Shown in pieces: positions 3,057-55,489 of a DNA stretch of 64,000 bases. Made by a program: the position numbers and the translations under genes. The notes below the pieces were generated by a model. The model was not told the origin of the DNA, did not search any database, and was given only the letters and a program-made list of their open reading frames with translations. The stretch is from Candidatus Omnitrophota bacterium (GTDB lineage: Bacteria > Omnitrophota > Gorgyraeia > B26-G9): contig JAZDHZ010000034.1 of NCBI GenBank assembly GCA_043805415.1, positions 101,478-165,477 on the forward strand. The letters run 5' to 3'. Positions within the stretch are counted from its first letter, which is position 1. Each line of letters opens with the position of its first letter.

Positions 3057-3809
3057 ATGGTTATGAAAAATATTGTTATAGGCTTTATTTTGCTGATTAG
3101 TGTGTGTGTTGGCAACTGCTTTGCCCTGGATGCTCTGTCTCCGCGTTTGAGTCTGGATAAAACTACTTTTCAGGGATACTTGCTTAAACCTCAATTGGAG
3201 CTGCTAAAAACCGCTCAGGAATTTACCGCGGAATCTCCGAGTCCGGCGGATAAACTGGGTAAAGTTATTTTTCGAGTAAATCTTAATGGAGAAAAACTAA
3301 TTGTCCGCAAGCGCGTAGAAGATTACGGCGATGAGGTGGAAGTTCATCATGCCTTGACCCGGGTAGAGGCCAAGGGCAGGGAAAAATACTTAGGACAATG
3401 CTGGTACACTATTGATGATGTTCAGGCTGTGTTGCAGGAATCCTATGATATGACTCCTGCTGTGCGGATTGAAGACAAAGACAAAGGCAAAGGATATGGC
3501 AGCGTGCTTTTTGCCGCGGTTATTGAAAACGCTGGGCAAAATGGAATTAATCGCTTTCTTATTTACCAGCCGACAACTTCTTTGTACGAAAAATTCGGAT
3601 TTGAGGAAATTGGTGATTATGGCCTGTCTTATAAAAACCTCAAGCCAGATGATCCATCCGCGTTTAGCATAGCGCGGGATTTGGCTGGGCAGCGCGGCAA
3701 ATTACTTAGTGTTGAAGGCATGTTTTTATTTGCCTTAAAAACCGCGCGGCAGCCGATAGCTAAGTTGCAGTTTGAGATAGTAAATGATGTTCTCGATGGT
3801 TCAGTCTGA
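3057..3809 (+). CDS. terminal-signature family member with GNAT acetyltransferase motif
   Basis: Leader 'MVMKNIVIGFILLISVCVGNCFA', N-box 'ALSPRLSLDKTTFQGYL', tail 'LDGSV-stop'. GNAT motif A 'KGKGYGSVLFAAVIENAGQNG...LYEKFGFEEIG'. ATG 3057 preferred over TTG 3027. Confidence 0.7.
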   Translation: MVMKNIVIGFILLISVCVGNCFALDALSPRLSLDKTTFQGYLLKPQLELLKTAQEFTAESPSPADKLGKVIFRVNLNGEKLIVRKRVEDYGDEVEVHHALTRVEAKGREKYLGQCWYTIDDVQAVLQESYDMTPAVRIEDKDKGKGYGSVLFAAVIENAGQNGINRFLIYQPTTSLYEKFGFEEIGDYGLSYKNLKPDDPSAFSIARDLAGQRGKLLSVEGMFLFALKTARQPIAKLQFEIVNDVLDGSV

Positions 3810-3959
3810 TCCACGCCTTGTGCTGGTTCAAGCAGTAAGATATAATCAAAGTTTTCCTTCCGCGATGATTTTCCAAAGCAAAACAAGCCAGTTTCCTTTT
3901 ATCGGTTTTTAAGGTAAAATAAGATTAACCAGCGGAGAAGTCGGACGGGTCAAAAAAAT

Positions 3960-4424
3960 ATGCTGATGAACCTATACATTGACGGCGATGCTTTTCCCAA
4001 TAGTCTGAAGCAAATTTTATTTCGGGCGATTGAACGCTTTGCTTTGCCGACATTTGTAATCTCAAACAAGCGGATCAATATTGGAAATTCAAAGCACATA
4101 AATTATATTATTGTTGACGCTGGACCTGATGAAGCTGACCAGCGGATTGTGGAAATGGCTGAAGAAGGGGATCTGATCATTACCGCGGATATTCCTTTAG
4201 CTGACAAAGTGATAACAAAAAAAGCTTATGCCTTAGACCACCGCGGAAAGTTTTTCAGCGAGGATAATATCAAATACTATTTATCCATGCGTAATCTGAT
4301 GCAAGAGATCCGGGATAATGGGATGATGACTAAAGGCCCGGCGGCTTTTAGCCAAAAAGACGCGCATGAATTTGCTAATCAATTGAACCAATTTTTAATA
4401 GAGCAAAAACAGCTTAGGGGATAG
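3960..4424 (+). CDS. yaiI: UPF0178/YaiI (DUF188) family protein
   Basis: 'LYIDGDAFP...IVEMAEEGDLIITADIPLA' matches the YaiI/YqxD family pattern. Confidence 0.75.
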   Translation: MLMNLYIDGDAFPNSLKQILFRAIERFALPTFVISNKRINIGNSKHINYIIVDAGPDEADQRIVEMAEEGDLIITADIPLADKVITKKAYALDHRGKFFSEDNIKYYLSMRNLMQEIRDNGMMTKGPAAFSQKDAHEFANQLNQFLIEQKQLRG

Positions 4425-4484
4425 AAGCTGGAAGAATAGAAATGTGCTAAGCATTGAATGTAATAATAATTGAAAGGGACAAAA

Positions 4485-5399: not shown

Positions 5400-5455
5400 G
5401 ATTGAATGGATCGCAACCCGCTGCAAAATAGCGTTGATCAAATATTATCTGAGCG

Positions 5456-6255: not shown

Positions 6256-9200
6256 ATGTTTTTTAGAAAAAGAAATAGTTATCGCGTTAAAATCACAACT
6301 TTTATTATTTTACAGTGTTTTATAATTATAAATAGTCAAAGTATTTTTGCCCAGGAACAGCGGATTGTTTTAAGCCGCCAGCAAACAAGTACTCTTTCTC
6401 CGCACTTAAGCATCGGAATGAACTTGATTCAAGCAATTTTTTCCGAAAAAAGTCAACAGCCGATTGCCGCATCCAATCTTCCCGGAACACTGATATCATT
6501 GCGTGATACCGGAAGTATCAAAGAATTATTAAGCGGCAAAGACGTATTTTTGAATGACCTTTGGGCTAGAAAAACCTTAGGAGTACCCACGGCAATCAGT
6601 AGCCTGCGCAGTGAAGATAATAATTTTGATTTATGGGATTGGGGAAAAGGGGACATGGGTGAATCCAGCCGCCAGCATATTTTATGGTTAGCCAAGAATG
6701 GCTTTTCCCGCTGGATGCGCTTACCTAACCGGAAAACCCGGGCTTTATTCGGAGACCCCAGCCCCTATGCTTCACGCAGCGCGTTTGCCGGGGAAGATTC
6801 GGATATTGCTGTGCCGGAAGTGGAGGAATTTATTAATTCAAAACAAGCGCAGGCTTGGTATGAGCAAAATAAAAACCGGATTAAGGATTTACATAATGCG
6901 AATAGAGTAAATGGAATGGAAGTAGCGAGATTGAAAAATGAGGCTTTGTGGCTGGCAATGGAGTATTTTAAAGAAAATCATTTAAATAAAAATACTTCGC
7001 GCGGTAAAGCTTTTGATAGTTTTTTAAATGATAAAGATAATGACTGGGTAAGTGAATACGCGGAATATATGGCCATAAGCGAATATTACTGGGATACAAA
7101 AAAAGCTGTTTTTTTTGAGATAAATGAAGATATCTGGTCAAACATCGACCAAAAATTAAAAGGCCTGGTGCATGACCTGAACGTGGCCATAAGCACTGAT
7201 AAAATTAAAGATGTCGGGCGTTTATATGAAATGATTGATGATTTTTTCGCGCAGTATTACCAGAATAGTATTGTGGCAAACGAAACCGATATCTTTAGAT
7301 TGAATATTTATCAGTCATTGCTGGACAAAATAAAACAGGGAATTTTAAAAGACCTTGTGCGGGGCAATATTAAATCGCTTGTTGAGGCAGATGAACCGGA
7401 ATGCGCGAAAATACTTTTGGATGGTTATGAGCGTTCCAAACAAGCGTTTCGCTATGATATCAAAGACGCGATTGGCCAGGAATGTATGGCTGACTGGAGA
7501 AATTGGGACAATGCCGGATTGGTGGAGCGCGATCCTATTGTTTTAGCCCAATTCCGGGAAAAACTGGAAGATAAAATATTGTTTCATAAGTACGCGCAGT
7601 TTATTTTTAATGAGCAGGAAAAAAACATGAAAGAATTTGCCAACAGCAATGGCATTGCCATAGAAGGAGATATTCCTTTTTATGTGTCAACCATAAGCTG
7701 TGAAACCTGGGTGTATAAAGATAAGATATTCCGGCTTGATCCGAAAAACCGCTATCAGCAGATGGCTGACAGCGGAGCGCCGCCAGACCAGTATGACCGC
7801 GAATACGGACAAAACTGGGGCGGGACTCCTTATTATATAAATGCGGCGTTTAAGCAATTTTTCTATAAACGCACAAAACATGAATTAAAGAACGCGGATG
7901 GTATCAGGATTGATCACTTCCGGGCGCTTAATGATTTCTGGGTAATTCCTCATGGCAAGCTTGGCCGGGACGGTAAGTTTGAAGATGGGCCAAAAGATGA
8001 ATTATTGCAGCCTTTGCTTAATCTGGCATTGGGACAGTTTAAACGTTTTTTTGCCGAAGATCTGGGCTCATATCTGGAAGGAGTCTGGGATCTGATGCGG
8101 GATAATGAAGTTAAGGGCTTTCGGGTAGCGATATTCGGCCATGGTGATGATGATGACATAGTTCATCGGCAATATTCCGGGCAGATTGCTTTTTCCGGCA
8201 CGCATGATACTCAGACCTGGTTTGGCGCTTGGAATCAATGGGATAGTGTTAAACGGAGAATATTCCTGGACAGGTTTACGCATGATGATATTCCGGAGAT
8301 TTGGCAGCGCTTAACATCTGAACAGAGAAAAGGGTTTTTAAAATACCTTAATTATTTAGTAAAGCAGTTAAAAGCAGATACAGCAAACATAAACAAACAT
8401 AGCGAGTTTCAATCTGAAAGCAAAGATTTTTTCACAGAGAATAATTTTAAAACGCAGTTGAAAAAAGTCCGCGTTATTACAAGGAGTTTGGTTGATCTTG
8501 AAGAATTGCCATTTGGCGTGCAAACCGCTGTTTTCGGAATCCTGGCTTTTTCCGAAGCAGATACAGTATTTCTGCCGATGCAGGATATATTCCGGCAGGG
8601 TGAAGAGTTTCGGATAAATGTTCCGGGCAGGCCCGGAGATTGGGGCTACCGCCATCCTTATACCGGACAGGAATTGAATAAAGCAATAAATGAAGAAATA
8701 AAAAAAGCTGATGAATTAATGCGGCTGCTGGCGCAAACTTCCGGCCGGGATGTTAGCGTGCCTTTGTACAAAAAAGGCCAAGGCGTGCATATTCTGGGTG
8801 TTTCTCCGGGTGTTAATGCCAAGAAGATGTGCAAACCAGGCGAGGAGTTTATTATCTGGGCGGCAGTACAGGGTGATAAACCAGCTAAGGTTAATCTGCT
8901 GACAAATATGCCTGAGCATAATGGCGCGTATCCTAAAGAACAGGCAGTGGCCATGGAATTAGTAAAAGAATTAAAGAGCGGAACCTATCTTTATGGAGTA
9001 AGAATAAGAGCAACACAGCCAGGCAAATGGGGAGTCGCGGTTGAGGCGGATAATGTAAGAGCCGGAGAGGTTAAGGAGAATACCAGTCTGGTTGTAAGCG
9101 CTTTGGATAAAATAGCGCCTTTGGCTAAAGAACAAGAAGCTGTGCTGCGGATCGCGGCCGGGATTTCCAAGGAAAAACTGCAAAGGATTTTAAATGAGTT

Positions 9201-11184
9201 GAATCCTGATTTGGCGCAGGCCCTGCGGCAGGCATTAAAAAATTATCAGGTAGAATATGCCGGTAATGATGAGGAAAAAATCATTAATCCCAGCGGACTG
9301 GATAAAGATTTATTATATGCGAATGTGAATTTAATCCGCGAAAAATTACTTAACCTTGATTACCAACAGTTAATCAAGGAAAATTATCCTGCTTTGAATA
9401 ATAAACTTATTGCTGAGTATATGAACAGGTCGGGATGGTATTCCGCGGCAGTGCCAAATAAAATAGCGCAGACTTTGCTTAATATCGCGGTTTTACCTGG
9501 AAATCCAGAGTCTGTTATGGAAAGTCTTACCACTATTCTTGGCCACGACAACACTATTAGCGGGGAAAAGCGGGTATTATTAGATCAGGCGTTTGCCAAT
9601 GCCGCCGCGATTGCTCATGACTCGGTATTTAGAAAAGGAGATTTGTTTGTCTTAAACAAGTTTAATGATCCTGAAGCTAATCAGAAGGTGCTGTCTTTTG
9701 CCCGGTATATGGGAAATGGCAGAAAGGCGATGGTAATCAGTAATTTCAATGACTCGCGCATTAACGGAACCCTTTTGCTCAATCAGCATAATTTTGACAA
9801 AATATTTAATATCTCCAGCACTCCAGGCAGTTATTATGCTTTGATTGACAGGGTAAGCGGAGAAATATACCTGCGTGAAGGAAAAGATTTGATCGCGCAT
9901 GGTTTGTATTTTGATCTTCCGGCTCAGTCCACGCATGTTTTTATGGTTCAGAGTTTACAGGATAATACAGCCAATGTTTTGCGGTCTAAATGTAATTATT
10001 ATAATGGCAAATCTCTGCCGCTGGAAGAAATTCTTTCGCTATTAAATAATTTTGGGCTGACTTTGGATTTTCCCTGTGTGGGAAAAACAGCGCGGGCTTT
10101 TGTTCTCCAGGGTCTTTTAAACAATGTTCCGGCAAATCAATTGATCCAGGCTTTTAAAAACAATCCGGAAATCAAGATAATCGAATTTGGGTTAAACCCG
10201 GCGGAAATCGCCGCTGAGATTAGCAAATTAGCGCAAGAGTATCAAGCTGATAAGCAAGTTCAGGCTTTATGCCAGGGCCTGCGGTTTTTAAATCAAAGAG
10301 GAGCATTAAATGAAATAAATCTTGTCCTGGTTTTAAATCAGGACAAAACATCAGTTGAGGCTGTTCAGTATTTTGATCATGGTTCAAAAAGCAGGAAAAG
10401 TTATTTGTATGTTAATTTGTCGCGGCTGAATCTGGATTCAAATAATAATTCTGAAACTAAACTTTCCGCCGCGTTAATAATCGGCGCGCGGATATCACGC
10501 CAAGGGTCGATCGCGGATTATGAATTAAGCCGAACCCTTAAAGCATTTTTAGCGCTTTGGGCGCGAGACGACGCGACTTTGCCAGGGTTAATCGACAGTG
10601 AACACAAAAGGATAAAAGGCATGTTGGAATATCTTGAAACAAATCTTAATTCAGTAATAGATGAATGGAAGCTGCCGTTTCATTATAACCTGGGACATGA
10701 TACGCTGTTAAGCCACTCTTTAAGGCGCGTAGTCATGGATTTGTTTTTAAAACAAAATACTGATAATCAAGTCAGTTTAGCCACTGTGCATAATTTTGCT
10801 TATTTCTTGGCGTATTATTTGGCTGATTCCGGACAGGCAGATAAGCTTCGCGATATTTTGCTTCAAGGATTTTCTGGAAAAAAAGCATCTTTTTATGAAC
10901 AATATTTTCTTACCAGCTTTATCTCCGGAGCACTGGTTTTAAGGGACAGCAGCATAGACGCGATTTTTATTGATTTACTGGAAAATCCTTTGCCGCAAAC
11001 GGATCTTGCCTTGCGGGAAAAAATTATAAAAACAATGTGCGGTCTAAACCGTTTTGATTTAAAATTAAACAAAATCTCAGTCAAAGAGTTGGGGGCGGTT
11101 CTCCAATCCGGCAAAGCTATTGAATCACTTCCTGAGGCAACAGTCGCGATCAGGCAGTATCAGGCGATTGGACAGGCGATTTAA
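6256..11184 (+). CDS. giant terminal-signature family protein carrying a GH77 4-alpha-glucanotransferase (amylomaltase) domain
   Basis: Leader 'FIILQCFIIINSQSIFA', N-box 'TLSPHLSIGMNLIQAIF', tail 'GQAI-stop'. GH77 blocks 'GDIPFYVS', 'GAPPDQYDREYGQNWGGTPY', 'GIRIDHFRA', 'FAEDLG' and 'GTHDTQTW' lie at nt 7666-8220. AAAGGAG Shine-Dalgarno sequence. Confidence 0.9.
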   Translation: MFFRKRNSYRVKITTFIILQCFIIINSQSIFAQEQRIVLSRQQTSTLSPHLSIGMNLIQAIFSEKSQQPIAASNLPGTLISLRDTGSIKELLSGKDVFLNDLWARKTLGVPTAISSLRSEDNNFDLWDWGKGDMGESSRQHILWLAKNGFSRWMRLPNRKTRALFGDPSPYASRSAFAGEDSDIAVPEVEEFINSKQAQAWYEQNKNRIKDLHNANRVNGMEVARLKNEALWLAMEYFKENHLNKNTSRGKAFDSFLNDKDNDWVSEYAEYMAISEYYWDTKKAVFFEINEDIWSNIDQKLKGLVHDLNVAISTDKIKDVGRLYEMIDDFFAQYYQNSIVANETDIFRLNIYQSLLDKIKQGILKDLVRGNIKSLVEADEPECAKILLDGYERSKQAFRYDIKDAIGQECMADWRNWDNAGLVERDPIVLAQFREKLEDKILFHKYAQFIFNEQEKNMKEFANSNGIAIEGDIPFYVSTISCETWVYKDKIFRLDPKNRYQQMADSGAPPDQYDREYGQNWGGTPYYINAAFKQFFYKRTKHELKNADGIRIDHFRALNDFWVIPHGKLGRDGKFEDGPKDELLQPLLNLALGQFKRFFAEDLGSYLEGVWDLMRDNEVKGFRVAIFGHGDDDDIVHRQYSGQIAFSGTHDTQTWFGAWNQWDSVKRRIFLDRFTHDDIPEIWQRLTSEQRKGFLKYLNYLVKQLKADTANINKHSEFQSESKDFFTENNFKTQLKKVRVITRSLVDLEELPFGVQTAVFGILAFSEADTVFLPMQDIFRQGEEFRINVPGRPGDWGYRHPYTGQELNKAINEEIKKADELMRLLAQTSGRDVSVPLYKKGQGVHILGVSPGVNAKKMCKPGEEFIIWAAVQGDKPAKVNLLTNMPEHNGAYPKEQAVAMELVKELKSGTYLYGVRIRATQPGKWGVAVEADNVRAGEVKENTSLVVSALDKIAPLAKEQEAVLRIAAGISKEKLQRILNELNPDLAQALRQALKNYQVEYAGNDEEKIINPSGLDKDLLYANVNLIREKLLNLDYQQLIKENYPALNNKLIAEYMNRSGWYSAAVPNKIAQTLLNIAVLPGNPESVMESLTTILGHDNTISGEKRVLLDQAFANAAAIAHDSVFRKGDLFVLNKFNDPEANQKVLSFARYMGNGRKAMVISNFNDSRINGTLLLNQHNFDKIFNISSTPGSYYALIDRVSGEIYLREGKDLIAHGLYFDLPAQSTHVFMVQSLQDNTANVLRSKCNYYNGKSLPLEEILSLLNNFGLTLDFPCVGKTARAFVLQGLLNNVPANQLIQAFKNNPEIKIIEFGLNPAEIAAEISKLAQEYQADKQVQALCQGLRFLNQRGALNEINLVLVLNQDKTSVEAVQYFDHGSKSRKSYLYVNLSRLNLDSNNNSETKLSAALIIGARISRQGSIADYELSRTLKAFLALWARDDATLPGLIDSEHKRIKGMLEYLETNLNSVIDEWKLPFHYNLGHDTLLSHSLRRVVMDLFLKQNTDNQVSLATVHNFAYFLAYYLADSGQADKLRDILLQGFSGKKASFYEQYFLTSFISGALVLRDSSIDAIFIDLLENPLPQTDLALREKIIKTMCGLNRFDLKLNKISVKELGAVLQSGKAIESLPEATVAIRQYQAIGQAI

Positions 11185-11185
11185 T

Positions 11186-14100
11186 ATGTCAGGAATTTTT
11201 AAAACTAAAATTTTAAATAGATTTCTCTGTCTGGTTATTTTGCAGATATTTCTTGTTTCCAATTTTTCCTGGGCCGCGGATGATTTGCGCGCGAATGATT
11301 TAGTTTATTCCAGCGCAACGCTTTCTCCTTCGCTTCAAATCAGCGCTGATGCGCTAAAACAATATTTTGCCCAATCCTTTGATTTAAAAACCGCGGCAAA
11401 TATAGATCCGGTTATAAAAGATATTTGCTTAGAGCTGTATAAGGCCAAGGATAAAACCACAAAAATAGAAGTTCTGGCCCTTGAGCAAGGCTATAGAGTA
11501 AAGATCAGGACTCAGAGCAATACGCCGCTTGTTTTACATTGGGGGTTTAATAATTGGCAAAAGCCTTTTAAGGAAATCTGGCCCCAGGCAGAGAATATCC
11601 GCACTTATTTTGATGAGCAGACCAAAGCAATGCGGACCATAGTCGAGGCTTCAGCTGAGGGAGATTATGTTTTTAATATTGATATCCCCTGGGAATTAGT
11701 TTCAGGAATAAACAATATTGATTTCACCTTCTTTTGCCCAGAAACCAAAGAATATAAGAAAGCAATTGAAAATAAGGATTATGTTGTGCCGGTTTCTAAT
11801 GTCTTGAACCTGGCCTTGGCGCGCTTGGCTGAAAATGCCGGGGCAGATGATCCTGAAAAAAAGCACGATCTGCTTAATTTGATAAACAAAAGGCTGGCTG
11901 CGGCCAAAGATTCAGCGGAAATAGATGAAAACAATATTCCTTTGTTTTATGACGCGCATGAAAATATTATTACCCAGATTGTGAAAAACAAAGCAGGAAT
12001 CAGAATTGATTTCTGGGTTGTAAGTAATGAGCCGCTGGTTTTACATTGGGGAATAAATGATTGGCAGTTGCCGCCAAAAAGCATTTGGCCGGACCGGACA
12101 TTATATAAAACCCGGGCTTATGAAAAAAAAGCAGTGCAAACTCAGATGCATTTGGCTTCTAAAGACGGTTTGTACCAGACCTCGATTTACATCCCTAACC
12201 AGAATTTAAAAGAAGTTAAAAACATCAAGTACAATGTACATTATCCAAATAATGGGTATTGGGATAATAATAATGAAGAGGATTATAGTTTATCGCTGCA
12301 AGCCCAGGATCTTATAGCCGCTTTGCTGCCTTACGCGACAGGCAGATTCGCTGCCCACATAAACGCCAAACAAGCTCGCGGCTTGTTAAAGAACATGGCG
12401 TTTTTCTACGCTGAGAATATGAATTACACTGATTTGTTAAAGCTTTTTCAGGGGATGGAAGGCATTGCCCCTGGGGATGATCTTGAAAAAAAAGATGTTT
12501 TGGGATTAATCCTTATTGCCAAATTAATGAACGAAGGCGCGGTTTGGGATAGTGACAAAGCTAAGATTATTATCAGTAAACAAAAGATCAGCGCCGCGAT
12601 AGCGGAGTTGATTGATAAACTTGACCCCTTAAGTGTGCAGTGGGCATTATATATATTCGGACTGCTTGACCCTTCCTGGGTCTCAATCCTTACGCATCAG
12701 CTTGATTATAAGCAGATATACCAGGATGTGCAAAACAGCAAGATCAAAGACCTGCCGAAATTTATCCAAGGGATAATCAACAGTTATGATGATTTGGAAG
12801 GAGCGCCGCAGGTTCTTTCCGCTGAGAGTATTGATGAAACCTGCCTGATCATAAAATTGAAATTCAATGATCAGATCATCAGTACAAAATGGGGCTATCC
12901 GACAAAACAGCAAAAGTATTATTATCAAAATGGGATTTTTGAACTAAGAGATTTCGGGGGAAATGAATTTTCGCCGGTAGGCCGTAAGCTTTCGCGTTAT
13001 GTGGATAAAGAAGTGATAAAAACCCAGATCTCCAGGCTGCGTGGCAAAGGCAAAAAGGCGATTGTTGACGGAATTTCCTGGCAGTCTCCGGAAGCGCTTA
13101 ATTCGGATAATTATATGTATTATCATCATAGTCTGCTGGAAAAAGACGCGGATGTCAGGAATTTATTGCTTTCCCGTGGTTCTTCCACGATCTTAGAACT
13201 TCCGGACGGGAAAAAAGCCTGGGTATTTCATCGGCCTGATTCATCAGATCAGCTTTCGCCTAATCTTAAATTCGGAACAAAGGCAGCGGAATACTGGAGA
13301 AATTATTGGCTGGAGTATTATAAATATTTTATCAATGAATTTGACGTGGATGGATTCAGGGTGGATTTACCCGGAGAGTTGAATCATCATGGAGATTATT
13401 CGGTATTTAAGAGTGTTTGTTTTGATATAGTGCGGTACGCGGCGGCAAAAGGCAAAAAAATATATTTTATTTTAGAAACATATCATGGGTACGCGAATAT
13501 CTGGGGCTGGGATGAGTTTTCCGCGTTAAATCATGATCCGCAGATAGCGCAATACGGCTATAAACCTTTCCGCTGTTATTATAAGCCGGTAATGACCAGT
13601 ATTTACCGCGGCAGCGCGTTTGATCTAAGAGCTGCTTTTGAACGCATAGCCGGCAGTGTTCAGGAATTGGTTATTTCAATTACTAATTTTGACGAGAAAA
13701 AAGCCGAGGATATTATTCCTGAAAAACAAAGGCTTAAGCGTTATATGGAGCTTTTGTATAATTTTGCCCGCGCGGGATTTGATGTAATGATTTATTTACG
13801 GGATTTAGGTCTGGGCGATATTTTGCCGATGTGCGGCGGAGATCGGGTTCTCTGGGGCGGAAAGCTGAGGGTTGTGGCGCATAAGCCGGCTACTCCGCGT
13901 CAGTTTCGGCAGAGATTGGAGCAAAGCACAGGCGATTTGCTTGAACAATCTCCTTTATATCAGGCGTTTAAAAAATCGCCGCAAAGCCCCTTATCGCGGC
14001 TGTTCTTCCGCGGCAATAAGTTAGTTTTTTATCAGCCGGGAAAAACTCCGGAAGTGTTTGATCTGGATAAGATGGCTAAGCCTGCTCCACCGGTAAAAGT

Positions 14101-15142
14101 TATGGACAGTGAGGAGGATATAAATATTTGGCTGCAGCAGCAGGTTTATTCATTAACAAATAATGAGCCGCAAACCCAAGCCTTAAGAGAAATTGAAAAT
14201 ACTTTAAAACGATTTAAGCATAGTGCAAGTGCAATGGCGGGAAAAGCTGTTTTGGCTCTGGTCTGTTCTGAGACTAAGAATTTCGCGGTTTGGGATCAGG
14301 CAAAAGGCCAAACTCAATGCCTGCGCATGCCGGTAAATAAAGTATTGGCCATAAAAAATGACCATGCTTTTGTTGTGGATATTAAACAAGCTGGCAAAAG
14401 CGAATCCCGCAGAATCCCGGCGCTGCAAATCAAGCAAAGCGGCAAATATTTGGCAATGGTTTTTGGCTTGGCTCCGGGTAAATACAGGTTTAATTTTTTG
14501 TGGCAGGAAAAACATGAAAACCAGGGCTGGGAAGAAGGCAATGGCTATGAGCTTGAAGTCAGTTCTCCGAAGACCGGGCAACCAGAGCTGGCGGTCTATA
14601 TCCCGCGTTTATCCGCTGAATATTTAAGGGATTGGGATGAAATGTTTTATCAGGCAAAAGATGCTGGCCGCAATCTGCTGACCGGAGATATGCTTACAAA
14701 GGGAATGCTTGAAAATATAGAATCCTCGATTGATTTTACCCTGCGTTATGAGTATGGCCGGGAGATTTTAGAACAAATTAAAGACAAAAAGAAAAAGCAG
14801 GTTTTCAATATTTTATATAATCAAATTTCGCAAAACCCGCGAGGCCGATACAGTTTACTGCATCATCACCATGAAAAAGATTTTTTTAAATTAGCGGAAA
14901 CTGTGCTTGAGAGTATCCCGGGTTTAGCAAGACCAGAGGCAGCCCCAATATGGCAATATTTGGACGCGCTCAAACAAGCGGATAATCCTGACCAAGGAGA
15001 ACAAAGCCAAATAGCCGTAAATATAAAACTGCTTGGTTTTATGTCTGGTTTGTTCGCGCAGATCGAAGCCCTGTCCGCGGCTAAACCCCTTGAGCTTTGG
15101 CTTAATATTGAAGCGGAGTTTTTGATTGGACAGGCAATATAG
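11186..15142 (+). CDS. terminal-signature family protein with GH13-like alpha-amylase-family core and two starch-binding-like modules
   Basis: The ATG lies 1 nt after the upstream TAA. Leader 'FLCLVILQIFLVSNFSWA', N-box 'TLSPSLQISADALKQYF', tail 'GQAI-stop'. 'VDGFRVDLPGEL', 'YFILETYHG' and 'ITNFDE' resemble GH13 regions II-IV. Tandem 'PLVLHWG.N.WQ.P' modules. Confidence 0.85.
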   Translation: MSGIFKTKILNRFLCLVILQIFLVSNFSWAADDLRANDLVYSSATLSPSLQISADALKQYFAQSFDLKTAANIDPVIKDICLELYKAKDKTTKIEVLALEQGYRVKIRTQSNTPLVLHWGFNNWQKPFKEIWPQAENIRTYFDEQTKAMRTIVEASAEGDYVFNIDIPWELVSGINNIDFTFFCPETKEYKKAIENKDYVVPVSNVLNLALARLAENAGADDPEKKHDLLNLINKRLAAAKDSAEIDENNIPLFYDAHENIITQIVKNKAGIRIDFWVVSNEPLVLHWGINDWQLPPKSIWPDRTLYKTRAYEKKAVQTQMHLASKDGLYQTSIYIPNQNLKEVKNIKYNVHYPNNGYWDNNNEEDYSLSLQAQDLIAALLPYATGRFAAHINAKQARGLLKNMAFFYAENMNYTDLLKLFQGMEGIAPGDDLEKKDVLGLILIAKLMNEGAVWDSDKAKIIISKQKISAAIAELIDKLDPLSVQWALYIFGLLDPSWVSILTHQLDYKQIYQDVQNSKIKDLPKFIQGIINSYDDLEGAPQVLSAESIDETCLIIKLKFNDQIISTKWGYPTKQQKYYYQNGIFELRDFGGNEFSPVGRKLSRYVDKEVIKTQISRLRGKGKKAIVDGISWQSPEALNSDNYMYYHHSLLEKDADVRNLLLSRGSSTILELPDGKKAWVFHRPDSSDQLSPNLKFGTKAAEYWRNYWLEYYKYFINEFDVDGFRVDLPGELNHHGDYSVFKSVCFDIVRYAAAKGKKIYFILETYHGYANIWGWDEFSALNHDPQIAQYGYKPFRCYYKPVMTSIYRGSAFDLRAAFERIAGSVQELVISITNFDEKKAEDIIPEKQRLKRYMELLYNFARAGFDVMIYLRDLGLGDILPMCGGDRVLWGGKLRVVAHKPATPRQFRQRLEQSTGDLLEQSPLYQAFKKSPQSPLSRLFFRGNKLVFYQPGKTPEVFDLDKMAKPAPPVKVMDSEEDINIWLQQQVYSLTNNEPQTQALREIENTLKRFKHSASAMAGKAVLALVCSETKNFAVWDQAKGQTQCLRMPVNKVLAIKNDHAFVVDIKQAGKSESRRIPALQIKQSGKYLAMVFGLAPGKYRFNFLWQEKHENQGWEEGNGYELEVSSPKTGQPELAVYIPRLSAEYLRDWDEMFYQAKDAGRNLLTGDMLTKGMLENIESSIDFTLRYEYGREILEQIKDKKKKQVFNILYNQISQNPRGRYSLLHHHHEKDFFKLAETVLESIPGLARPEAAPIWQYLDALKQADNPDQGEQSQIAVNIKLLGFMSGLFAQIEALSAAKPLELWLNIEAEFLIGQAI
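11460..12295 (+). repeat. two tandem ~110-aa starch-binding-like modules (intragenic duplication)
   Basis: 'NTPLVLHWGFNNWQKPFKEIWP' (about nt 11520) and 'NEPLVLHWGINDWQLPPKSIWP' (about nt 12029), each followed by 'A(M/V)(R/Q)T...' and a Y/W-rich beta region. Confidence 0.6.
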
Positions 15143-32200: not shown

Positions 32201-32560
32201 GATATATTCGCGATAGATAAGACTGATATGTCTCAGGACGCGAAGCTGAAAATAGCGGAAATGATCAACGGATTAAAAGCCGGGATAACTGAGTCAATGG
32301 GTGTGAGTGAAGATAAAATTACCGGTCGGGAAATCACGCGGTGGTTTAAAACTCCTTCTTCGCGGAATAAGCAGCTGAGAGATTTTTATTTTCAATATGG
32401 GGCAATAACAGCAGAACCTATATCCATCCTGGGTTTTGCTGGGTTTTTAATGAATATTCCGGCATTGCGTTCGGCAGCTGATGCTGAGCGAAAAGCGGCG
32501 CCTTTAAGCGGTATTATAAACCGCAAGCCGCTCGAACAATTAGTCGGACAGTCAATATGA
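29258..32560 (+). CDS. terminal-signature family protein with PARP-like ADP-ribosyltransferase motif and Pol-beta-type nucleotidyltransferase motif
   Basis: Leader 'MNYKQKSKFRLIFRVIASVLLQAFLFTNFAWC', N-box 'TISPAIQVTEASIQTLF', tail 'GQSI-stop'. Internal 'YHIS..LNSILLSGGRI...SGQGVYFFEM' and 'DTGSSNRGLTVENPDFDFLI'. Confidence 0.85.
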   Translation: MNYKQKSKFRLIFRVIASVLLQAFLFTNFAWCGADQFIQGNTVCAPAISSTTISPAIQVTEASIQTLFVQSAAFQMGKRAEFKGLDSLKQAEVENALGDKFSLSLNLKGKLNTASVIQNIEKRTDIKADYKKILNAMILEFGKLDVKFYSYETLVEDLFGFASAGNKMIAIHSSVFSNPIAQTHEIGEFLAQAGMLNFSLGQDDQLLISLNGSLIGRIKLSEDALAIAKKDPSSNHYLLRAFQREVFQDKDRALTAGIKNKQGDLSSAMKIFLKTINAETGNKVEASMSLSKLNDPMFEALFKDIEFNRFSENDAAKLKIAILLQNNIAIEPIAEPLLQECGMLNKESADLYETIFPAAGTPGFSPKKLFAKENVNPDNLHLIFELAKRYSPIKAFSDKLDRIYRELALYTLPVSPGARYHISLLKDLNSILLSGGRIKESKHSLSGQGVYFFEMGNSGLVNAQTRLAEFFPFISSSPHDLADADYVVKAFRQKIARDAKDNARIFPVVIQVAEDIPAEAAMGWAFREDYKKAGKLIRDELNAQEYEFLINLNYLYLSENQAVKNHLLAKNIIREENGIIRLVDASRAIQDENKKNTGWARMRFADLRYEVINLSYTKLDSDIQKLSAKMAQLLQNLLADKMSVSSVVDTGSSNRGLTVENPDFDFLIKINSPEDFTAIVKLLLDEKILENFLKEHKAAFEAIYGDKSVSIVTEQPHAVGKGNLYLFPFKFVAANRIVGGVDFNFSKLSAGKAETLSYHETARQQLQAILDKVPEAEQKQLSRYLAGEIKTLKKLIINQGLYKDKDTKRNRFIGVAVEQMIYNLSDYLSMPSNISTAEIKSIFSIKTALYLISRMESERLNGLSFSLYQRANGSGFSNQSVKYDLRDNEKSVIPKVGTAFAGFKEFSEAENAGVKNKIKGLITDFISRPGNKVKIIEFFARYNNEVDAAIALGQAKPFSNWEFFERWEFTHRFFTLHKTEIDIFAIDKTDMSQDAKLKIAEMINGLKAGITESMGVSEDKITGREITRWFKTPSSRNKQLRDFYFQYGAITAEPISILGFAGFLMNIPALRSAADAERKAAPLSGIINRKPLEQLVGQSI
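30509..30640 (+). other. PARP/H-Y-E-clade ADP-ribosyltransferase-like signature
   Basis: 'ARYHISLLKDLNSILLSGGRIKESKHSLSGQGVYFFEMGNS' parallels the PARP1 sequence '[20 protein letters not shown]...GKGIYFADMVSKS'. This is pattern recall, not a search. Confidence 0.4.
31190..31265 (+). other. Pol-beta superfamily nucleotidyltransferase signature (GS-x9-12-DxD)
   Basis: 'VVDTGSSNRGLTVENPDFDFLIK'. Confidence 0.45.
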
Positions 32561-32602
32561 ATATTCTCTAGGGCAATATGATTGGGTAAATGGAACAAGA
32601 TA

Positions 32603-48800: not shown

Positions 48801-48814
48801 ATATGATGTTAACG

Positions 48815-48990: not shown

Positions 48991-51357
48991 ATGAGAAAGT
49001 TTAAAAATATTTTCATAAAGGTACTTATAGCAGCGTTTCTGTTGCAGACGCCATCTGCTTTTGCGTTGAAAAGTGCCCAAGACAGTGTATGTGCCAACGC
49101 GGGTACAGTTTTTCTGGCGCCTTATCTGACCATTGATGCCACATCAATTCAAACGAGTGCCTCCAAACTATATGATTTTTCCCAACAGGCTGCTTTACAA
49201 CCTGTTCTCGAAACTCTTACAGATAATTTCGGATGGCCGGAAGAGATTGCTGTTTCTGTTAGCCAGCGAGTGGCGTTTACACTCAGTCAAACAGAGACAT
49301 CAGTAGATTATCGGCCGGATATTGCCATTATTGCTACCGCGACTACGTCAGATCAACAGTATATCCGTTATGTTTTTCCGTTAAACCAGGAAAATTCTAT
49401 TAGCGTGGTTGATCAAGACATGAGGATAATCCGTTTTGTCTGGAATGGAAACGAGTTATCAATCGCGGAAATTGGAACAGGGGATCGAGGAACTGTGCGC
49501 TATGCGGATCAACAGATGCTTTTATCGCTTAAGGATCACATTAAAGATAGAATGGAAGAACTGCTTAAAAGAGATTCTGTAACATTAGAAGACTTGCAAG
49601 AATTATTGTGGATGGACCCCCTAACTTTTTTAAAAGACCAAGACTATGAGCCGCGACCCTTAGAAAACGACGAAATATTTTTTCTCATGAAGCGTTTAAA
49701 CGATTTATTCTTTGAATTGAAGGTTGATGATCCATGGGTTCTTCCCAAGATTAACGATCCTAATGCTTTGGCGGCAGATGATCCGTATCACCTGTTAACC
49801 TCCAGACGACGTGTCCAGATTGATGAGCGTGTTGTTGATCATGGAATTTTGTTTGAAGCAATGAAGTTAGAAGCTGATGAGTTTGCTCTGTTTCTCGCTC
49901 GGGATGCGATGAGCGCGCATGAATTTATCACCCATCTGCAAACCTTACAAGGCAACTCACAAGCCCTGTCAGGATTAGTTTATCAGCCAGGGCTTCGCAG
50001 CGCGTTTCAAACTGATTTTGACAAGAAACATAAGCGGACAGCATATGTGGATGAGGAAAGTTTAGAACATACCATGAGAAGAATAACCCAGGCTTTTCAG
50101 GGCACTTTGCAAAAATTGGGAAAGCCTGTTCAGAGAATAACCCGAGGCGAGGCTGATAATAAAGAATTTAACGCTGATGAATACAATGAGTTTTATTCGC
50201 TTTTTAAGCAGAAAATAATCGAGCTGATTAATTCCGAAGAGCATGTTCGCAAAGAATCGGAACTTATATTGAACCAGATAAAAAGAGCGATTCATGGAGA
50301 TTTTAAGAAGATCCGGGTTATTGATTTGGATGCGACAGGGAAAACAGCGCTTTATGTAAGAGCGGTTATTGAGTATTATGCTGAGAAGGGAGAGCTTGAT
50401 GTGGAGAGCGCTGAAGTATTTATCGGCAACGGACGTGGAAGCTCGGTAAATGTTCCCAAGGTGCGTCAAGGCGCGACAGACCCTCAGGTGAGTTTTGTTG
50501 ATTTGAACTGGCCATTTATTGCTGAGCAAAGAGATGCTGCTACGGGAATGGTTAACTTTAGAGTTACTAAGTCTCGCTATCGCTTCCTTGAGCTTACGTA
50601 TCAGAGTTTGCGTTTGTACAATGAAGCAATCAGTTTTTTTGAAAACGGGCAGAAAGGCTCAGTGTCCAGGCTTTCAAAGAAAGAGAATGCGAAGGCGTCC
50701 AAAGCTAAACCAAATAATATACTGGATATGACAAAGTATGAATTTTTAAACCAGTATCAGAGAAACGGGTTTTTCCGTCCAGGGTTTTATGGAAGCAAAC
50801 GATTGGCAATTGAAGCGCGGCTCAATGAGTGGTTTGGAAAAGGTAATTGGCAGGAGCGTTATGCGATCAATGGGAATCTTAGTACTAAGGATGAGATGCT
50901 TGTGTTTTATGAAGATGCCTATGTCGCGTATTTACGGGATAATAGTCCTCTAGCCACTTGGTTGGAAGAAACAGCAATCGACGTATTTGATAATAGTACA
51001 TCTAATCTGGATAGCAGGATGGATTATTCCATTCAGGAAACGACAAGCAACCATTACCAGGATATTGCTATACGCAGAGCATTTGATCGTTTAGGCAAAA
51101 GTTTTGGAGGTTCTGAACTGATTCAAGTTCGCGGAAAGGATTCGAAAGGGGCTAAATTAAGTCCAGGGGTGGTACCTTTTAATAAGCCGTATCTGCTTTT
51201 CAATCCTCCGCTCAAAGGTTGGTGGAACAAAGGTTCTATCGAAGAATTTTTGCAAAGCTCAAAAGTTATTGTTATCCTGCCGGCTACCTTTAATATTGAA
51301 ATAAAAAGTGCTGTTCAATACAGCAGAGAGCAGTTTGTTATCGAGCATTCGATATAA
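48991..51357 (+). CDS. terminal-signature family protein, function unknown
   Basis: Leader 'IFIKVLIAAFLLQTPSAFA', N-box 'FLAPYLTIDATSIQ', tail 'EHSI-stop'. Confidence 0.8.
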   Translation: MRKFKNIFIKVLIAAFLLQTPSAFALKSAQDSVCANAGTVFLAPYLTIDATSIQTSASKLYDFSQQAALQPVLETLTDNFGWPEEIAVSVSQRVAFTLSQTETSVDYRPDIAIIATATTSDQQYIRYVFPLNQENSISVVDQDMRIIRFVWNGNELSIAEIGTGDRGTVRYADQQMLLSLKDHIKDRMEELLKRDSVTLEDLQELLWMDPLTFLKDQDYEPRPLENDEIFFLMKRLNDLFFELKVDDPWVLPKINDPNALAADDPYHLLTSRRRVQIDERVVDHGILFEAMKLEADEFALFLARDAMSAHEFITHLQTLQGNSQALSGLVYQPGLRSAFQTDFDKKHKRTAYVDEESLEHTMRRITQAFQGTLQKLGKPVQRITRGEADNKEFNADEYNEFYSLFKQKIIELINSEEHVRKESELILNQIKRAIHGDFKKIRVIDLDATGKTALYVRAVIEYYAEKGELDVESAEVFIGNGRGSSVNVPKVRQGATDPQVSFVDLNWPFIAEQRDAATGMVNFRVTKSRYRFLELTYQSLRLYNEAISFFENGQKGSVSRLSKKENAKASKAKPNNILDMTKYEFLNQYQRNGFFRPGFYGSKRLAIEARLNEWFGKGNWQERYAINGNLSTKDEMLVFYEDAYVAYLRDNSPLATWLEETAIDVFDNSTSNLDSRMDYSIQETTSNHYQDIAIRRAFDRLGKSFGGSELIQVRGKDSKGAKLSPGVVPFNKPYLLFNPPLKGWWNKGSIEEFLQSSKVIVILPATFNIEIKSAVQYSREQFVIEHSI

Positions 51358-52823: not shown

Positions 52824-52913
52824 TCAAATCCTCTTGCCTGGATATACGGGGGCACAATTGAAAATGCATGGATGCAATCCTTAATTATCCAATCATGTTT
52901 TTTTAACAAACTA

Positions 52914-52951
52914 AAACCTCTGTTCTGAGAATTTATCAGGGCAGGGGTTTT
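52914..52951 (+). terminator. conserved terminator-like repeat, copy 3
   Basis: AAACCUCUGUUCUGA-GAAUUUA-UCAGGGCAGGGGUUUU. Confidence 0.7.
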
Positions 52952-53146
52952 CTGGTTTTAGGCTTCAGAAAGTTAATTAGCCGGATTATTTGCTTTTTTA
53001 GCTGAATTCAGGTATATTTTTGGTAGTTTTTGTTAGGCTGATTTTGCTGTTTATCGTTAATTTTCAAATGGTTGCGTTCCTGGCAGCTGTTTATACGCTA
53101 ATTTTCAGACATATCCGCCTTATTCATAATTAAGAAAGCAAAAAAA

Positions 53147-55489
53147 ATGATTTATCAAATAAGAAAATTTATTTTATTGCTCCGATTTATATGCCTAATC
53201 CTGGGACAGTTATTGCTGATTAATGGCTTTGCCTGGGCAGGGCAGATGAATACTTTGTCTCCGGTAGCAGTTGTAAGCAATGCTAATTTTAAAAAAGCTT
53301 TTGATGATAATTTAGACGAGATATACGCGCTTAATAATAAAATTAAAAGCATCAAACAGGTTTATAGCATGATCACGGAATTAGATGCTTATCCGGGTTT
53401 TACCCGAATGCTTGATTCAGATGATGGATACAGAGATATCGGCATTTTTCTGGTTTCTGATCTTGATGAGGTAAATAAAATTATAAACATATTGCCAGTA
53501 GATAAACATTCTGAGGTTTGTGAGCTGGGCAGCGGCATTGGTAATGTCAGTGCTTTATTTGCCGCCAGAGGGGCAAATGTAATTGGTTATGAAATTGACC
53601 AAAAGCTGGTATGGTTAAGTAATAATATAGCGCAAATTGATTTAAAAGATATTCTTGCTCCGGAAAGAATAAAGTTTGAGCGCGCGAATTTTTTAAGCAA
53701 GGATCTTTCTAAATTTGACATTATATTCTATTACTGGAACAGCATGGTTTCTGAATATAAAGATGAGCTGCAGAATAAAATTTTAAAAGAACTTAAGCCC
53801 GGTGCTTTATTGGTATTGTTCGGGGTGAGCAAGGATAAAGCATATTTCTCGGGATTAAAAGAGATGACTGGCTTACCGGGCTATGAATCAATAAGCGCGT
53901 ATGCCAAGGTATATGCGCAGCCGGATAAACCTATTGCCCAAACCAATGAACAATCAAAGCTGCAATCATTTCGCGATGATTTAGATTCGCCGGATACAGA
54001 GGCGCGTTTGCAGGCAGCGCTTGCTTTAGCGCAAAGCAAGCATGCTGATGATAAAGCATACGCGATTATTAAGGAATCAGCAATTAATAAAAACTTAACG
54101 CTGAATGAAAGAATAAGAGCGGCGAGATTCTTAAGCGATTCAGACCGGATGGAATATGCCGGGCAGCTTATAAGCGATGAACAACAGTTTGCCAGAATAG
54201 AACGCGACGATAAAAAAGACTTTGACAGTTTGGAGCTATCAGCGGCAAGTCTAGAGCAAGTTCAAGGGCAAATAAAAATGATATCAGGCATAGATAAGCA
54301 AGTTGCTGATGAACTTATGCTCAAGGCGGGTAAACTTGCTTTTTTAAGTGAGGAGCTTTCCCGGCTTAGTAACGCGATAAGATATTTTGAGGGAAATTGG
54401 CATGCGCTTTTAGAGGAAAAACTGGATAGCGAATATGGCTATGCCAAAGAAGTAAATGAGGCAATGATCGCGGACGATATGCTAGGGGTTGAGCTTTTTA
54501 ATGCCGTAGATTATGTAAAAGCTTATTTGGTTTGCCAAAAGTTAATATCCCGGCTTAGAGATAAAGGGATAATAGTTATGGGCGGAGATAGAGAATGGTT
54601 TTTGCTTGAGGCTTTTCAGTATATTTTTAAGAGAAATTATACAATGGAACAAGCAGAAAAGATGCTGGAAAATAAATGGGAAGTATCAACAGCGGCAATA
54701 AGAGCAAAAGAAATATTTAAAGATTTAATAACAATTGGCCTTAGCCCGAGTGGGTTTATGTCAGAAGTGAAAATAGGATTTTTCGCTAATACGGCGCAGC
54801 AGTTCATCTATCGGGGTTATGACGACGCGAATCATCTTGAATACGCGCCCGGCCCGAATTATGATGCCAGAAATATTTCCATTGGAGTGGAGAACAATAT
54901 TGGTTCAGTAAATGCCATGCACATTAATCTTGGGGTGCCCTGGGCCTCAAAATATATCTGGGCATCATATTTGGCATTGCATAATTTTATTGATTCAAAT
55001 ACTATGGCCAAAGGTTATTATGATTATTTTTATGATCAGCAAATCAAAGACAGCAGTCAATTATTCCCCGGCCAGCGCAGGGTTTCTTATATCGGGGTTT
55101 GGACCGAAGACCTTGATGATCTGGATTCAATAATCGAGACTTTTGTGCCCTTGAGCATTGGTTTAAATAATTATATGTCAAAAGAAAATCCGGAAATAGC
55201 GGAAATCTGGAAAACTTTTAGAATCGAATTTGAAGAGATTATAAATTCGCAAAATGATCAACAGTTAAAAACGGAATTTTTTGAACAAGCCAGGATGGTA
55301 AGATTCGTGGAATTGATATCGGAAAAAAATCGCGGCAATATTTTTTACCAGCAAGTTGAAAATCTTATTCAAAAAACAATCAAACAAATTAATCATAATC
55401 TCGCGAATCAAAACAAGAATCAGGCTTTAATCAAACATTCCCCGGAATTTCTTCAATTTCCAGAAACCGCGGTACTTAATTCAATTTAG
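53147..55489 (+). CDS. terminal-signature family protein with SAM-dependent methyltransferase domain
   Basis: Leader 'FILLLRFICLILGQLLLINGFAWA', N-box 'TLSPVAVVSNANFKKAF', tail 'LNSI-stop'. Motif I 'VCELGSGIGNVSALFAARGANVIGYEID' at nt 53518-53600. Confidence 0.8.
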   Translation: MIYQIRKFILLLRFICLILGQLLLINGFAWAGQMNTLSPVAVVSNANFKKAFDDNLDEIYALNNKIKSIKQVYSMITELDAYPGFTRMLDSDDGYRDIGIFLVSDLDEVNKIINILPVDKHSEVCELGSGIGNVSALFAARGANVIGYEIDQKLVWLSNNIAQIDLKDILAPERIKFERANFLSKDLSKFDIIFYYWNSMVSEYKDELQNKILKELKPGALLVLFGVSKDKAYFSGLKEMTGLPGYESISAYAKVYAQPDKPIAQTNEQSKLQSFRDDLDSPDTEARLQAALALAQSKHADDKAYAIIKESAINKNLTLNERIRAARFLSDSDRMEYAGQLISDEQQFARIERDDKKDFDSLELSAASLEQVQGQIKMISGIDKQVADELMLKAGKLAFLSEELSRLSNAIRYFEGNWHALLEEKLDSEYGYAKEVNEAMIADDMLGVELFNAVDYVKAYLVCQKLISRLRDKGIIVMGGDREWFLLEAFQYIFKRNYTMEQAEKMLENKWEVSTAAIRAKEIFKDLITIGLSPSGFMSEVKIGFFANTAQQFIYRGYDDANHLEYAPGPNYDARNISIGVENNIGSVNAMHINLGVPWASKYIWASYLALHNFIDSNTMAKGYYDYFYDQQIKDSSQLFPGQRRVSYIGVWTEDLDDLDSIIETFVPLSIGLNNYMSKENPEIAEIWKTFRIEFEEIINSQNDQQLKTEFFEQARMVRFVELISEKNRGNIFYQQVENLIQKTIKQINHNLANQNKNQALIKHSPEFLQFPETAVLNSI

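Follow-up and report, generated by a model that had tools for sequence, protein, structure and literature searches.

Omnitrophota are widespread, uncultured and very small bacteria, which are suspected of living off other cells. The closest described counterparts of the proteins treated here are the giant membrane-associated multi-enzyme Omnitrophota proteins of the 'Archaeovorin' type (West-Roberts et al. 2023, bioRxiv 10.1101/2023.11.21.568195; 2026 preprint 10.64898/2026.06.07.730766). According to these publications, they are encoded over tens of kb and contain many transmembrane helices, with a locus resembling a type II secretion system (T2SS) upstream and a PilZ gene downstream, and it is ambiguous whether their enzyme content faces into or out of the cell. 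We analysed a stretch of 64,000 nucleotides (nt) from a Candidatus Omnitrophota bacterium (contig JAZDHZ010000034.1, positions 101,478 to 165,477), which is called the window in the following, and in which nine plus-strand genes belong to one family and make up about 45% of the sequence. Their products carry an N-terminal leader module resembling an export signal and a C-terminal hexapeptide, and an earlier note on this DNA had preferred to regard them as effectors acting inside other cells rather than as proteins of unexpected topology. While its premise of cytoplasm-type cargo behind an export-like leader holds, the effector reading is not the best supported one. Judging from the sequences, we tentatively favour the reading that the leader is not a conventional export signal, that the cargo resides on the cytoplasmic side of the producing cell, and that the two terminal tags act as recognition handles for a partner.

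The giants share with this family the phylum, the association with membranes and a set of common domains (methyltransferase, GNAT, GGDEF, AAA_5, PGM, GT1, SecA_DEAD, Lysine_decarbox and HEAT), and they raise the same question of whether the enzymes face in or out. PilZ genes also flank relatives of the window proteins at loci L001, L003 and L011, and a cluster relative of 7,410 amino acids (aa) has both tags, between which no transmembrane segment is convincing. In contrast to the giants, the window proteins are only 255 to 2,986 aa long, eight of the nine are devoid of internal transmembrane segments, and the 64-kb window contains neither a PilZ gene nor a T2SS-like locus. Term searches of both publications did not retrieve any mention of a bipartite terminal signature.

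Two terminal tags define the family

The family is defined by two terminal tags and not by the cargo between them. The N-terminal module begins with a tail rich in Lys and Arg, which leads into a 13-residue hydrophobic core (consensus IIALVLIQAFLVM-D-x-AWA-GG) whose Gln and Phe are almost invariant. A spacer separates the core from the motif TL[SA]PxLxI...Q..F, which is referred to as the LSP motif. In the alignment of the nine window leaders, the core ends with F-[AS]-W-A or F-A-L and is followed, after a variable spacer, by TL[SA]PxLxI....Q..F. When the relatives retrieved from databases are included, the core is followed by D/N-x-[AS]-W-[AC]-G/A, which a spacer of roughly 15-22 residues separates from the nearly invariant T-L-[SA]-P-x-[LI]-x-[IL]...[QK]..[FY]. 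The Gln and the Phe are each found in 119 of 132 sequences and L-[SA]-P in 131 of 132, and the uncharged core is exactly 13 residues long in 102 of 114 members. Position -3 is occupied by Ala or Ser (100/132) and position -1 by Ala or Cys (113/132). On average, 3.2 Lys and Arg residues precede the core and 1.0 follow it; of 128 members, 115 have more of them before the core and 5 have more after it. The start of the mature region is acidic or neutral. At the C-terminus, the last six codons specify the tag L-[IV]-[EG]-Q-[AS]-I-COOH. Each of the nine window members ends with it, whereas it is missing from about 30 other open reading frames (ORFs) of the window that were checked by eye, and it is present in 99 of the 112 database members of at least 300 aa. 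Neither Pfam nor NCBIfam contains a model covering either tag. The nine family genes, with ORF starts at nt 3027, 6256, 11120/11186, 26245, 29258, 32582, 41723, 48991 and 53147, are as follows.

3027..3809, + strand: member 1, 260 aa, true start probably at 3057; LSP motif nt 3135-3182, GNAT-like region nt 3456-3611, tail VLDGSV nt 3789-3806.
6256..11184, + strand: member 2, 1642 aa; LSP motif nt 6394-6441, GH77 4-alpha-glucanotransferase with intact catalytic triad nt 7486-8658, tail AIGQAI nt 11164-11181.
11186..15142, + strand: member 3, 1318 aa from the Met at 11186 (ORF opening at 11120, Met about 1 nt past the stop of member 2); LSP motif nt 11321-11368, starch-binding-type Ig_N_CWD1 nt 11984-12295, tail LIGQAI nt 15122-15139.
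26245..27012, + strand: member 4, 255 aa; LSP motif nt 26362-26409, tail LIDASI.
29258..32560, + strand: member 5, 1100 aa; LSP-type motif ISPAIQV nt 29414-29461, claimed PARP-like stretch nt 30509-30640, Pol-beta-type nucleotidyltransferase motif about nt 31175-31312, tail LVGQSI nt 32540-32557.
32582..41542, + strand: member 6, 2986 aa, multi-pass membrane protein, likely start at Met 32603; LSP-type motif nt 32744-32791, twin-arginine-like SRRAFFK with hydrophobic stretch and AEA nt 32885-32986.
Member 6, middle part: basic loops nt 35132-35299 (16 Lys/Arg) and nt 36167-36310 (14 Lys/Arg), each flanked by hydrophobic pairs; HExxH nt 35864-35878; UPF0489 nt 36512-37000.
Member 6, C-terminal block: Walker A nt 37691-37714, HD about nt 38351, cNMP-binding nt 39416-39670, GGDEF domain nt 39800-40069 (motif 39962-39976), tail LLEQAI nt 41522-41539.
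41723..43429, + strand: member 7, 568 aa (566 at NCBI); LSP motif nt 41825-41872, kinase-like HGYPH...NDFE without the catalytic Asp nt 42926-43030, tail ACQEAI.
48991..51357, + strand: member 8, 788 aa; LAP-type motif nt 49114-49161, tail VIEHSI.
53147..55489, + strand: member 9, 780 aa; LSP motif nt 53255-53302, class I S-adenosylmethionine (SAM) methyltransferase nt 53501-53818, tail AVLNSI.

According to Kyte-Doolittle hydropathy, eight of these proteins contain the leader only and no second transmembrane segment, and member 6 is the sole multi-pass member. The window also encodes a contrast set of ordinary signal-peptide proteins with neither tag.

1926..2903, + strand: GH26 protein.
16039-17487: DUF4139 protein.
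23061-24440: TPR and Peptidase_MA_2 protein.
51738-52823: glycoside hydrolase.
55738-56805: Amidase_3 lipoprotein.

These proteins carry classical exported domains (GH26, a glycoside hydrolase catalytic core, Peptidase_MA_2, DUF4139 and Amidase_3) and score at most 4.6 bits with a hidden Markov model of the leader, against 43-96 bits for the family members. Nearly all window genes lie on the plus strand at a GC content of about 0.39-0.42, and exact look-ups (NCBI proteins MFH1062764-785) assign the window to a contig of 169,549 bp.

Several known types of terminal signals were compared with the tags and ruled out. A lipoprotein signal does not fit a leader with Trp at -1 and Cys only in a minority of members, and the G-F-T-L-x-E motif of prepilin-type leaders is absent. 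The leader is no double-glycine leader of a C39-peptidase (PCAT) substrate either: its helix is uniformly hydrophobic and a Gly-Gly pair is not universal, since Gly is the commonest residue in the three columns past AW[AC] (55/101, 60/124 and 36/128), but the pair is missing from most window members. The usual tag encoded by transfer-messenger RNA (tmRNA) has about 10 residues and ends with ...ALAA. A tmRNA gene at 46820-47252 of the window has an unusually long predicted tag, with 25 residues according to ARAGORN and up to 35 if read from an upstream GCU, and ends with ...PAAVLL, which rules out that the C-terminal tail of the family mimics this degradation tag. The hexapeptide may represent a sorting, docking or completeness tag.

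An exhaustive search of 1.84 billion representative proteins with a profile of the nine leaders gave 139 matches at E<=1e-3, three of which are obvious false positives and about 136 genuine. The matches nearly always begin at residue 1 of proteins 55-3,711 aa long. Their named sources are mostly Omnitrophota, apart from three mislabelled metagenome-assembled genomes (MAGs), which are probably binning errors, and the family is Omnitrophota-specific. Scanning a genome collection with an alignment of 10 leader sequences yielded nine loci, and the family genes also form tandem arrays in other MAGs. Synteny with the window is seen at locus L006 (SMC, GAF-GGDEF, TPR-peptidase and HemN-like genes), yet this locus contains different family members, which argues for rapid turnover of the family genes. 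The largest run of family genes in the window starts right past a tRNA-Leu(GAG) gene (25854-25939) downstream of this SMC/GAF-GGDEF/TPR-peptidase/HemN-like block, and the different members at the matching site of L006 (9926-18300) suggest a hot-spot of gene turnover.

Some further genes in and around these arrays deserve mention. The GAF-GGDEF gene of the window (21658-22851, minus strand) contains an in-frame TAA at 22381-22383, whereas its orthologue in L006 (4651-5844) is one uninterrupted ORF of 397 aa with 88% identity across the stop; the interruption reflects a nonsense mutation or an assembly error, or marks a pseudogene. Between the family genes, a 564-aa protein (27275-28969) has a hydrophobic N-terminus and neither tag. 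By eye, its N-terminal region resembles the start of the relative P0018 (...IQD.HCNY.AQ...), a protein of 1,843 aa at locus L001 with a PilZ gene upstream, which repeats the module found at aa 75-270 of the 1100-aa member 5. The match of a 156-aa ORF with a GTG start (5456-5926) to a penicillin-binding transpeptidase/beta-lactamase domain is confined to the C-terminal two-thirds of the latter (Pfam positions 106-296 of 299), and the ORF may be a gene fragment.

Cargo in the window and among the relatives

All motifs listed in the earlier note were found in place, and all of them lie inside leader-bearing family proteins. The GH77 domain of member 2 (6256-11184) was corroborated by a Pfam match with E=4e-77 and 260 bits against a cut-off of 25, and its catalytic Asp/Glu/Asp residues are intact (IRIDHF, AEDLG and THD) when aligned to PDB entry 1tz7. 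In member 6, the cNMP-binding domain was confirmed with E=3e-9 in Pfam and by matches to PKG structures at 2e-15 over two stretches, the P-loop by the Walker A sequence GPSGAGKT exactly at nt 37691 and an AAA_18 match (E=0.0025), and the GGDEF domain by a score of 30.1 bits for the sub-region (22.9 for the full protein; cut-off 23.8) and an exact GGDEF at aa 2461. The SAM methyltransferase proposed for member 9 is adequately supported by the NCBIfam model BchM (3.6e-8) and a motif I of ELGSGIG; the models Methyltransf_31, _12, _11, _23, _25 and RrnaAD also match, all just below their Pfam cut-offs. Three further proposals are more weakly suggested by the data, namely the GNAT domain of member 1 (FR47 with 22.7 bits at a cut-off of 22.1, a motif A of KGKGYG, NCBIfam N-acetyltransferase E of about 2e-3), the nucleotidyltransferase of member 5 (NTP_transf_2 E=0.006, with GS...DFDF kept in the orthologue P0017) and the HD domain of member 6 (E=0.05).

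Two of the proposed activities could not be upheld. The PARP-like stretch at aa 418-461 of the 1100-aa member 5 gave no match in Pfam, NCBIfam or PDB, with either the single sequence or a profile, and the proposed His is a Gln in P0017. The only match of the kinase-like core of member 7 (aa 402-436) is Bud32 with E=0.019, and the core looks degenerate: the position of the catalytic Asp is a Tyr (HGY) in four of four orthologues, three of which read HGYPH and one HGYAH. Both proteins gave nothing significant in sequence and profile searches of PDB, only 2-3 homologues each of their cargo were found among 5.8e9 proteins, and AlphaFold2 models from alignments of 2-4 sequences reached predicted local distance difference test scores of 38.9 (member 7) and 35.3 (member 5). 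The PDB searches were likewise without significant matches for the 1318-aa member 3 and for member 8, and Pfam and NCBIfam scans detected no family in the cargo of member 8 and no recognised fold in that of member 4. These cases, together with the Pfam matches below cut-offs, could be taken to mean that the motifs are chance matches or decayed domains, which would remove any paradox of cofactor supply. The intact GH77 triad, GGDEF motif, Walker A sequence, methyltransferase motif I and cNMP-binding domains, as well as the recurrence of the same domain classes with strong E-values in 105 relatives, essentially exclude this explanation.

The statement that the cargo is dominated by cofactor-dependent enzymes was generous for the window itself. 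Four of the nine members contain a supported domain of this kind, two are alpha-glucan enzymes without a cofactor requirement, and three are unknown or degenerate; because GH77 and its Ig_N_CWD1 neighbour need no cofactor, the statement is only moderately true here. It was borne out by a census of 105 database members, which were split by Kyte-Doolittle hydropathy into proteins with the leader only (36), with a second hydrophobic segment within 170 residues (41) and with later segments only (28), each class being scanned against Pfam. The leader-only class contains GT1/trehalose synthase (TreT), PrmA-type and other methyltransferases, DUF294/NTP_transf_2, HD, HD_4, glutamate dehydrogenase, NAD-epimerase/GDP-mannose dehydratase, GH77, CBM48, UDPGP, Pkinase and HTH_3. 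Further families in the remaining two classes are GGDEF, cNMP-binding, several AAA families, HEAT, PGM, PGI, PGK, transaldolase, patatin, SecY, SecA_DEAD and SecA_PP_bind, and an exact GGDEF motif occurs in 10 members. No classical secreted-protein family was found among the matches listed (best 25 of 47, 30 and 36 families per class). Because of this census, the generalisation to cytoplasm-type cargo is right for the family as a whole.

Some relatives combine several such domains: P0114 is a fusion of the leader with PGM, PGK and UDPGP, P0113 of PGM-like, transaldolase (TAL) and PGI domains, and P0072 of the leader with glutamate dehydrogenase. P0081 (1,527 aa) carries SecY (aa 382-704) and the DEAD and preprotein-binding domains of SecA (aa 1006-1524) behind the leader; a translocon and its motor are here contained in one polypeptide, which is tagged like their possible clients. 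Cargo of the types PGM-PGK-UDPGP, TAL-PGI, glutamate dehydrogenase, HTH and SecY-SecA represents poor effector candidates.

Position of the leader module relative to the membrane

The same leader also heads multi-pass proteins with intact GGDEF, cNMP-binding, AAA and SecA domains, in which the next hydrophobic segment has a basic N-terminal flank and, in five proteins, a twin-arginine consensus. The order of segments was followed in a GGDEF/HExxH subfamily (P0031, P0022, P0047, P0023, P0042 and others), where the leader and the LSP motif precede a basic stretch, a second signal-like segment (...LPFASPA) and the sequence QAQAPPAI. Next come an HExxH domain of about 260 aa and three transmembrane segments. 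The first two of these enclose a 45-aa loop with 14-17 Lys/Arg, with a charge of +8 ahead of the second; an uncharged 20-aa loop connects the second to the third, after which a charge of +4 to +8 leads into the GGDEF domain. Because the positive-inside rule and a cytoplasmic GGDEF domain are consistent only with a second segment running from inside to outside, the leader/LSP module should be cytoplasmic in these proteins. Scoring the later transmembrane segments of 73 multi-pass members by the positive-inside rule placed the module inside in 50 and outside in 17 of them.

A second line of evidence comes from the signals of the twin-arginine translocation (Tat) system. The strict consensus [ST]RRxF[FL] occurs six times in 133,293 residues of family sequence, and five of these motifs are located at residues 65-102, right past the leader/LSP module and before a hydrophobic stretch; one of them belongs to the 2,986-aa member 6. 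There, aa 102-135 comprise SRRAFFK, then VIGAAAVLTGADLILSAPA, then AEA, and P0020, P0134, P0040 and P0097 are arranged likewise. The member 6 segment shows the [ST]-R-R-x-F-L-K pattern, the mild h-region and the AxA site of a Tat signal, but it is not placed at the N-terminus, with about 100 residues preceding it. Because the n-region of a Tat signal must be cytoplasmic, the module would again lie on the cytoplasmic side. The same side is indicated for P0081, because a probable hairpin (aa 205-223 and 238-256) precedes the first transmembrane segment of SecY (aa 325-343), whose N-terminal side is cytoplasmic.

Several observations weigh against a cytoplasmic position of the module and its cargo. 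The leader looks like a classical cleavable signal for the Sec system and signal peptidase I (SPase I), with a basic n-region, a 13-residue core and small residues at -3 and -1; a core of this length is too short for a stable anchor, and the conserved AxA-type site ([AS]-W-[AC]) is hard to account for unless a signal peptidase acts on the outer face. A further hydrophobic segment is absent from eight of the nine window members, 17 multi-pass members score in the opposite direction, and the second helix of the P0081 hairpin is borderline (1.58). The 48-56-aa loops of member 6 with their 14-16 Lys/Arg argue for an outside position of the large domains next to them, whereas its P-loop/HD/cNMP/GGDEF block should be inside, and no single topology of this protein satisfies all signals. 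The transmembrane calls derive from Kyte-Doolittle windows and not from a trained predictor. In addition, the housekeeping domains of the relatives are divergent paralogues (PGK 96 bits, PGI 28 bits, SecY 126 bits), which are no evidence that core metabolism depends on the tagged enzymes.

Member 6 contains internal repeats of a module composed of a hydrophobic segment, a basic loop of 48-56 aa and a signal-peptide-like segment ending with WPFASPA or FLSPAI. In one copy, QAQAPPAI and the HExxH domain come next, and the same module stands right past the leader in smaller relatives. The repeats may point to internal sites for signal peptidase or to a metalloprotease domain in the periplasm.

The 17 members with the opposite score also bear on a reading of mixed destinations. 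In this case, the tags would be read in the cytoplasm by a chaperone, quality-control or assembly system, and the location would be set by what follows the module: with nothing after it the protein would be cytoplasmic or peripheral, with a second signal of the Tat or Sec type it would be exported, and with several transmembrane segments it would be a membrane protein. This would accommodate the 50:17 split, the lack of strict parity in the number of later transmembrane segments, and the occurrence of the C-terminal tail both past cytoplasmic GGDEF regions and on proteins with only a later Tat-like segment, such as P0040. It leaves the conserved small residues at -3 and -1 unexplained, and the reading is hard to tell from the favoured one by sequence alone; we regard it as rather improbable.

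A membrane association without translocation is known from the phosphoglycosyl transferase PglC. Its monotopic N-terminal helix is re-entrant, with a Ser-Pro pair breaking the hydrophobic stretch and sufficient length to enter the membrane and turn back, and is mistaken for a membrane-spanning helix by predictors. Like PglC, the family has an N-terminal basic stretch and a hydrophobic helix predicted as N-in/C-out, and the catalytic domain of PglC is nevertheless cytoplasmic. A re-entrant helix of this type was ruled out for the leader, whose uninterrupted core of 13 residues does not have the necessary length and whose Ser-Pro pair is located about 20 residues downstream.

Possible export or cytoplasmic docking

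The reading preferred in the earlier note was true export. The leader would be a cleavable Sec signal, for which a dedicated SecY-SecA pair may exist. Sorting in a second step would depend on the LSP motif and the C-terminal tail, and the cargo would work in the periplasm, in a surface coat, or in host or prey cells, which contain the cofactors. We consider this a serious alternative, yet less probable than a cytoplasmic location. The design of the leader with its polar c-region and acidic early mature region agrees with that of classical Sec/SPase I signal peptides, eight window members are devoid of further transmembrane segments, and the short loops of the giant member 6 are very basic. In contrast to classical signal peptides, both sequence and length of the core are conserved across unrelated cargos (Q, F, L, D/N and W), a family motif follows at a semi-fixed distance, the cargo is of a cytoplasmic type, and the downstream topology of the multi-pass members appears to conflict with translocation.

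The accessory Sec system (SecA2/SecY2) of Gram-positive bacteria handles substrates with a special long signal peptide and an AST domain. As an analogy only, the combination of a family-specific signal, an adjacent motif at the mature start and a SecY/SecA paralogue, here as a tagged SecY-SecA fusion, recalls these substrates and adds to the case for export. The family differs from them by lacking KxYKxGKxW, serine-rich repeats and the context of a glycosylation island, and by its extra C-terminal tag. The Tat-like signals, moreover, imply the export of folded cargo in some members. With the module outside, however, the multi-pass members would become topologically inconsistent: their basic 45-aa loops and GGDEF domains would be outside and the Tat n-region would be on the wrong side of the membrane. 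Intact GGDEF, cNMP-binding, AAA, SecA ATPase and HTH cargo is also hard to explain outside the cell.

Regarding effectors in particular, Sec-dependent toxins such as cholera toxin and exotoxin A are known to use host cofactors, and other enzymes are secreted into host compartments, such as the glycogen enzymes of Chlamydia and the hexokinase of microsporidia. They resemble the family in bearing an export signal on an enzyme whose cofactor or substrate is present only within another cell, including alpha-glucan enzymes like GH77; they come, however, with delivery parts of their own (B subunits or a type III secretion system), none of which were found for the family, and do not include GGDEF, SecA or HTH cargo. 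Typical effector activities include GNAT, methyltransferase, nucleotidyltransferase, kinase-like, glycosyltransferase and patatin functions, and the few homologues of members 5 and 7 and the tandem arrays at a syntenic hot-spot indicate fast gene evolution. Further points for export come from the literature on the giant Omnitrophota proteins, which mentions host-dependent or predatory traits of the phylum and T2SS/Tad-like loci next to the giant genes, and in which DeepTMHMM places the multi-enzyme content of giants with a signal peptide and transmembrane segments outside. On the other side, neither the 64-kb window nor 12 related loci contained genes of type II, III, IV or VI secretion systems, and among the top families listed in the census modules for translocation or receptor binding are absent and classical toxin domains nearly so.

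According to the favoured reading of a cytoplasmic location, the leader would not carry the cargo out of the cell, and in the multi-pass relatives the tag module would be cytoplasmic, ahead of the first true crossing of the membrane. The leader-only proteins, which include eight of the nine in the window, would by homology keep their cargo on the cytoplasmic side as well, where ATP, GTP, SAM, acetyl-CoA and UDP-sugars are available. The two tags may then serve in targeting to the membrane or in docking onto a common partner; speculative candidates for this partner are the SecA-like signal-peptide-binding domains on the SecY-SecA member and on giant Omnitrophota proteins. The family would thereby represent small and mid-sized relatives of the membrane-associated multi-enzyme giants of the phylum.

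A more far-reaching proposal, which we put forward as speculation and consider unlikely at present, is an undescribed sorting or assembly system of Omnitrophota that reads the bipartite signature (the signal-like helix of fixed length with TL[SA]PxLxI, and LIEQAI-COOH). It would place nucleotide-, SAM- and sugar-nucleotide-dependent enzymes either in a cofactor-containing non-cytoplasmic space, for instance a sealed contact zone or the cell of a host or prey, or on a cytoplasmic scaffold of giant proteins with SecA-like signal-binding domains.

Published predictions of the topology of the huge membrane-associated multi-enzyme proteins of Omnitrophota disagree. The window extends this in-or-out puzzle to proteins of ordinary size, and the two tags offer a sharp sequence handle on about 130 protein clusters that is absent from Pfam and NCBIfam. 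Export of the tagged proteins would mean that a large new system of effectors or of sorting exists; without export, signal-peptide predictors would mislabel a whole class of cytoplasmic Omnitrophota enzymes. A sorting system serving a cofactor-containing space or a cytoplasmic scaffold would, if it exists, be a new way of organising bacterial enzymes.

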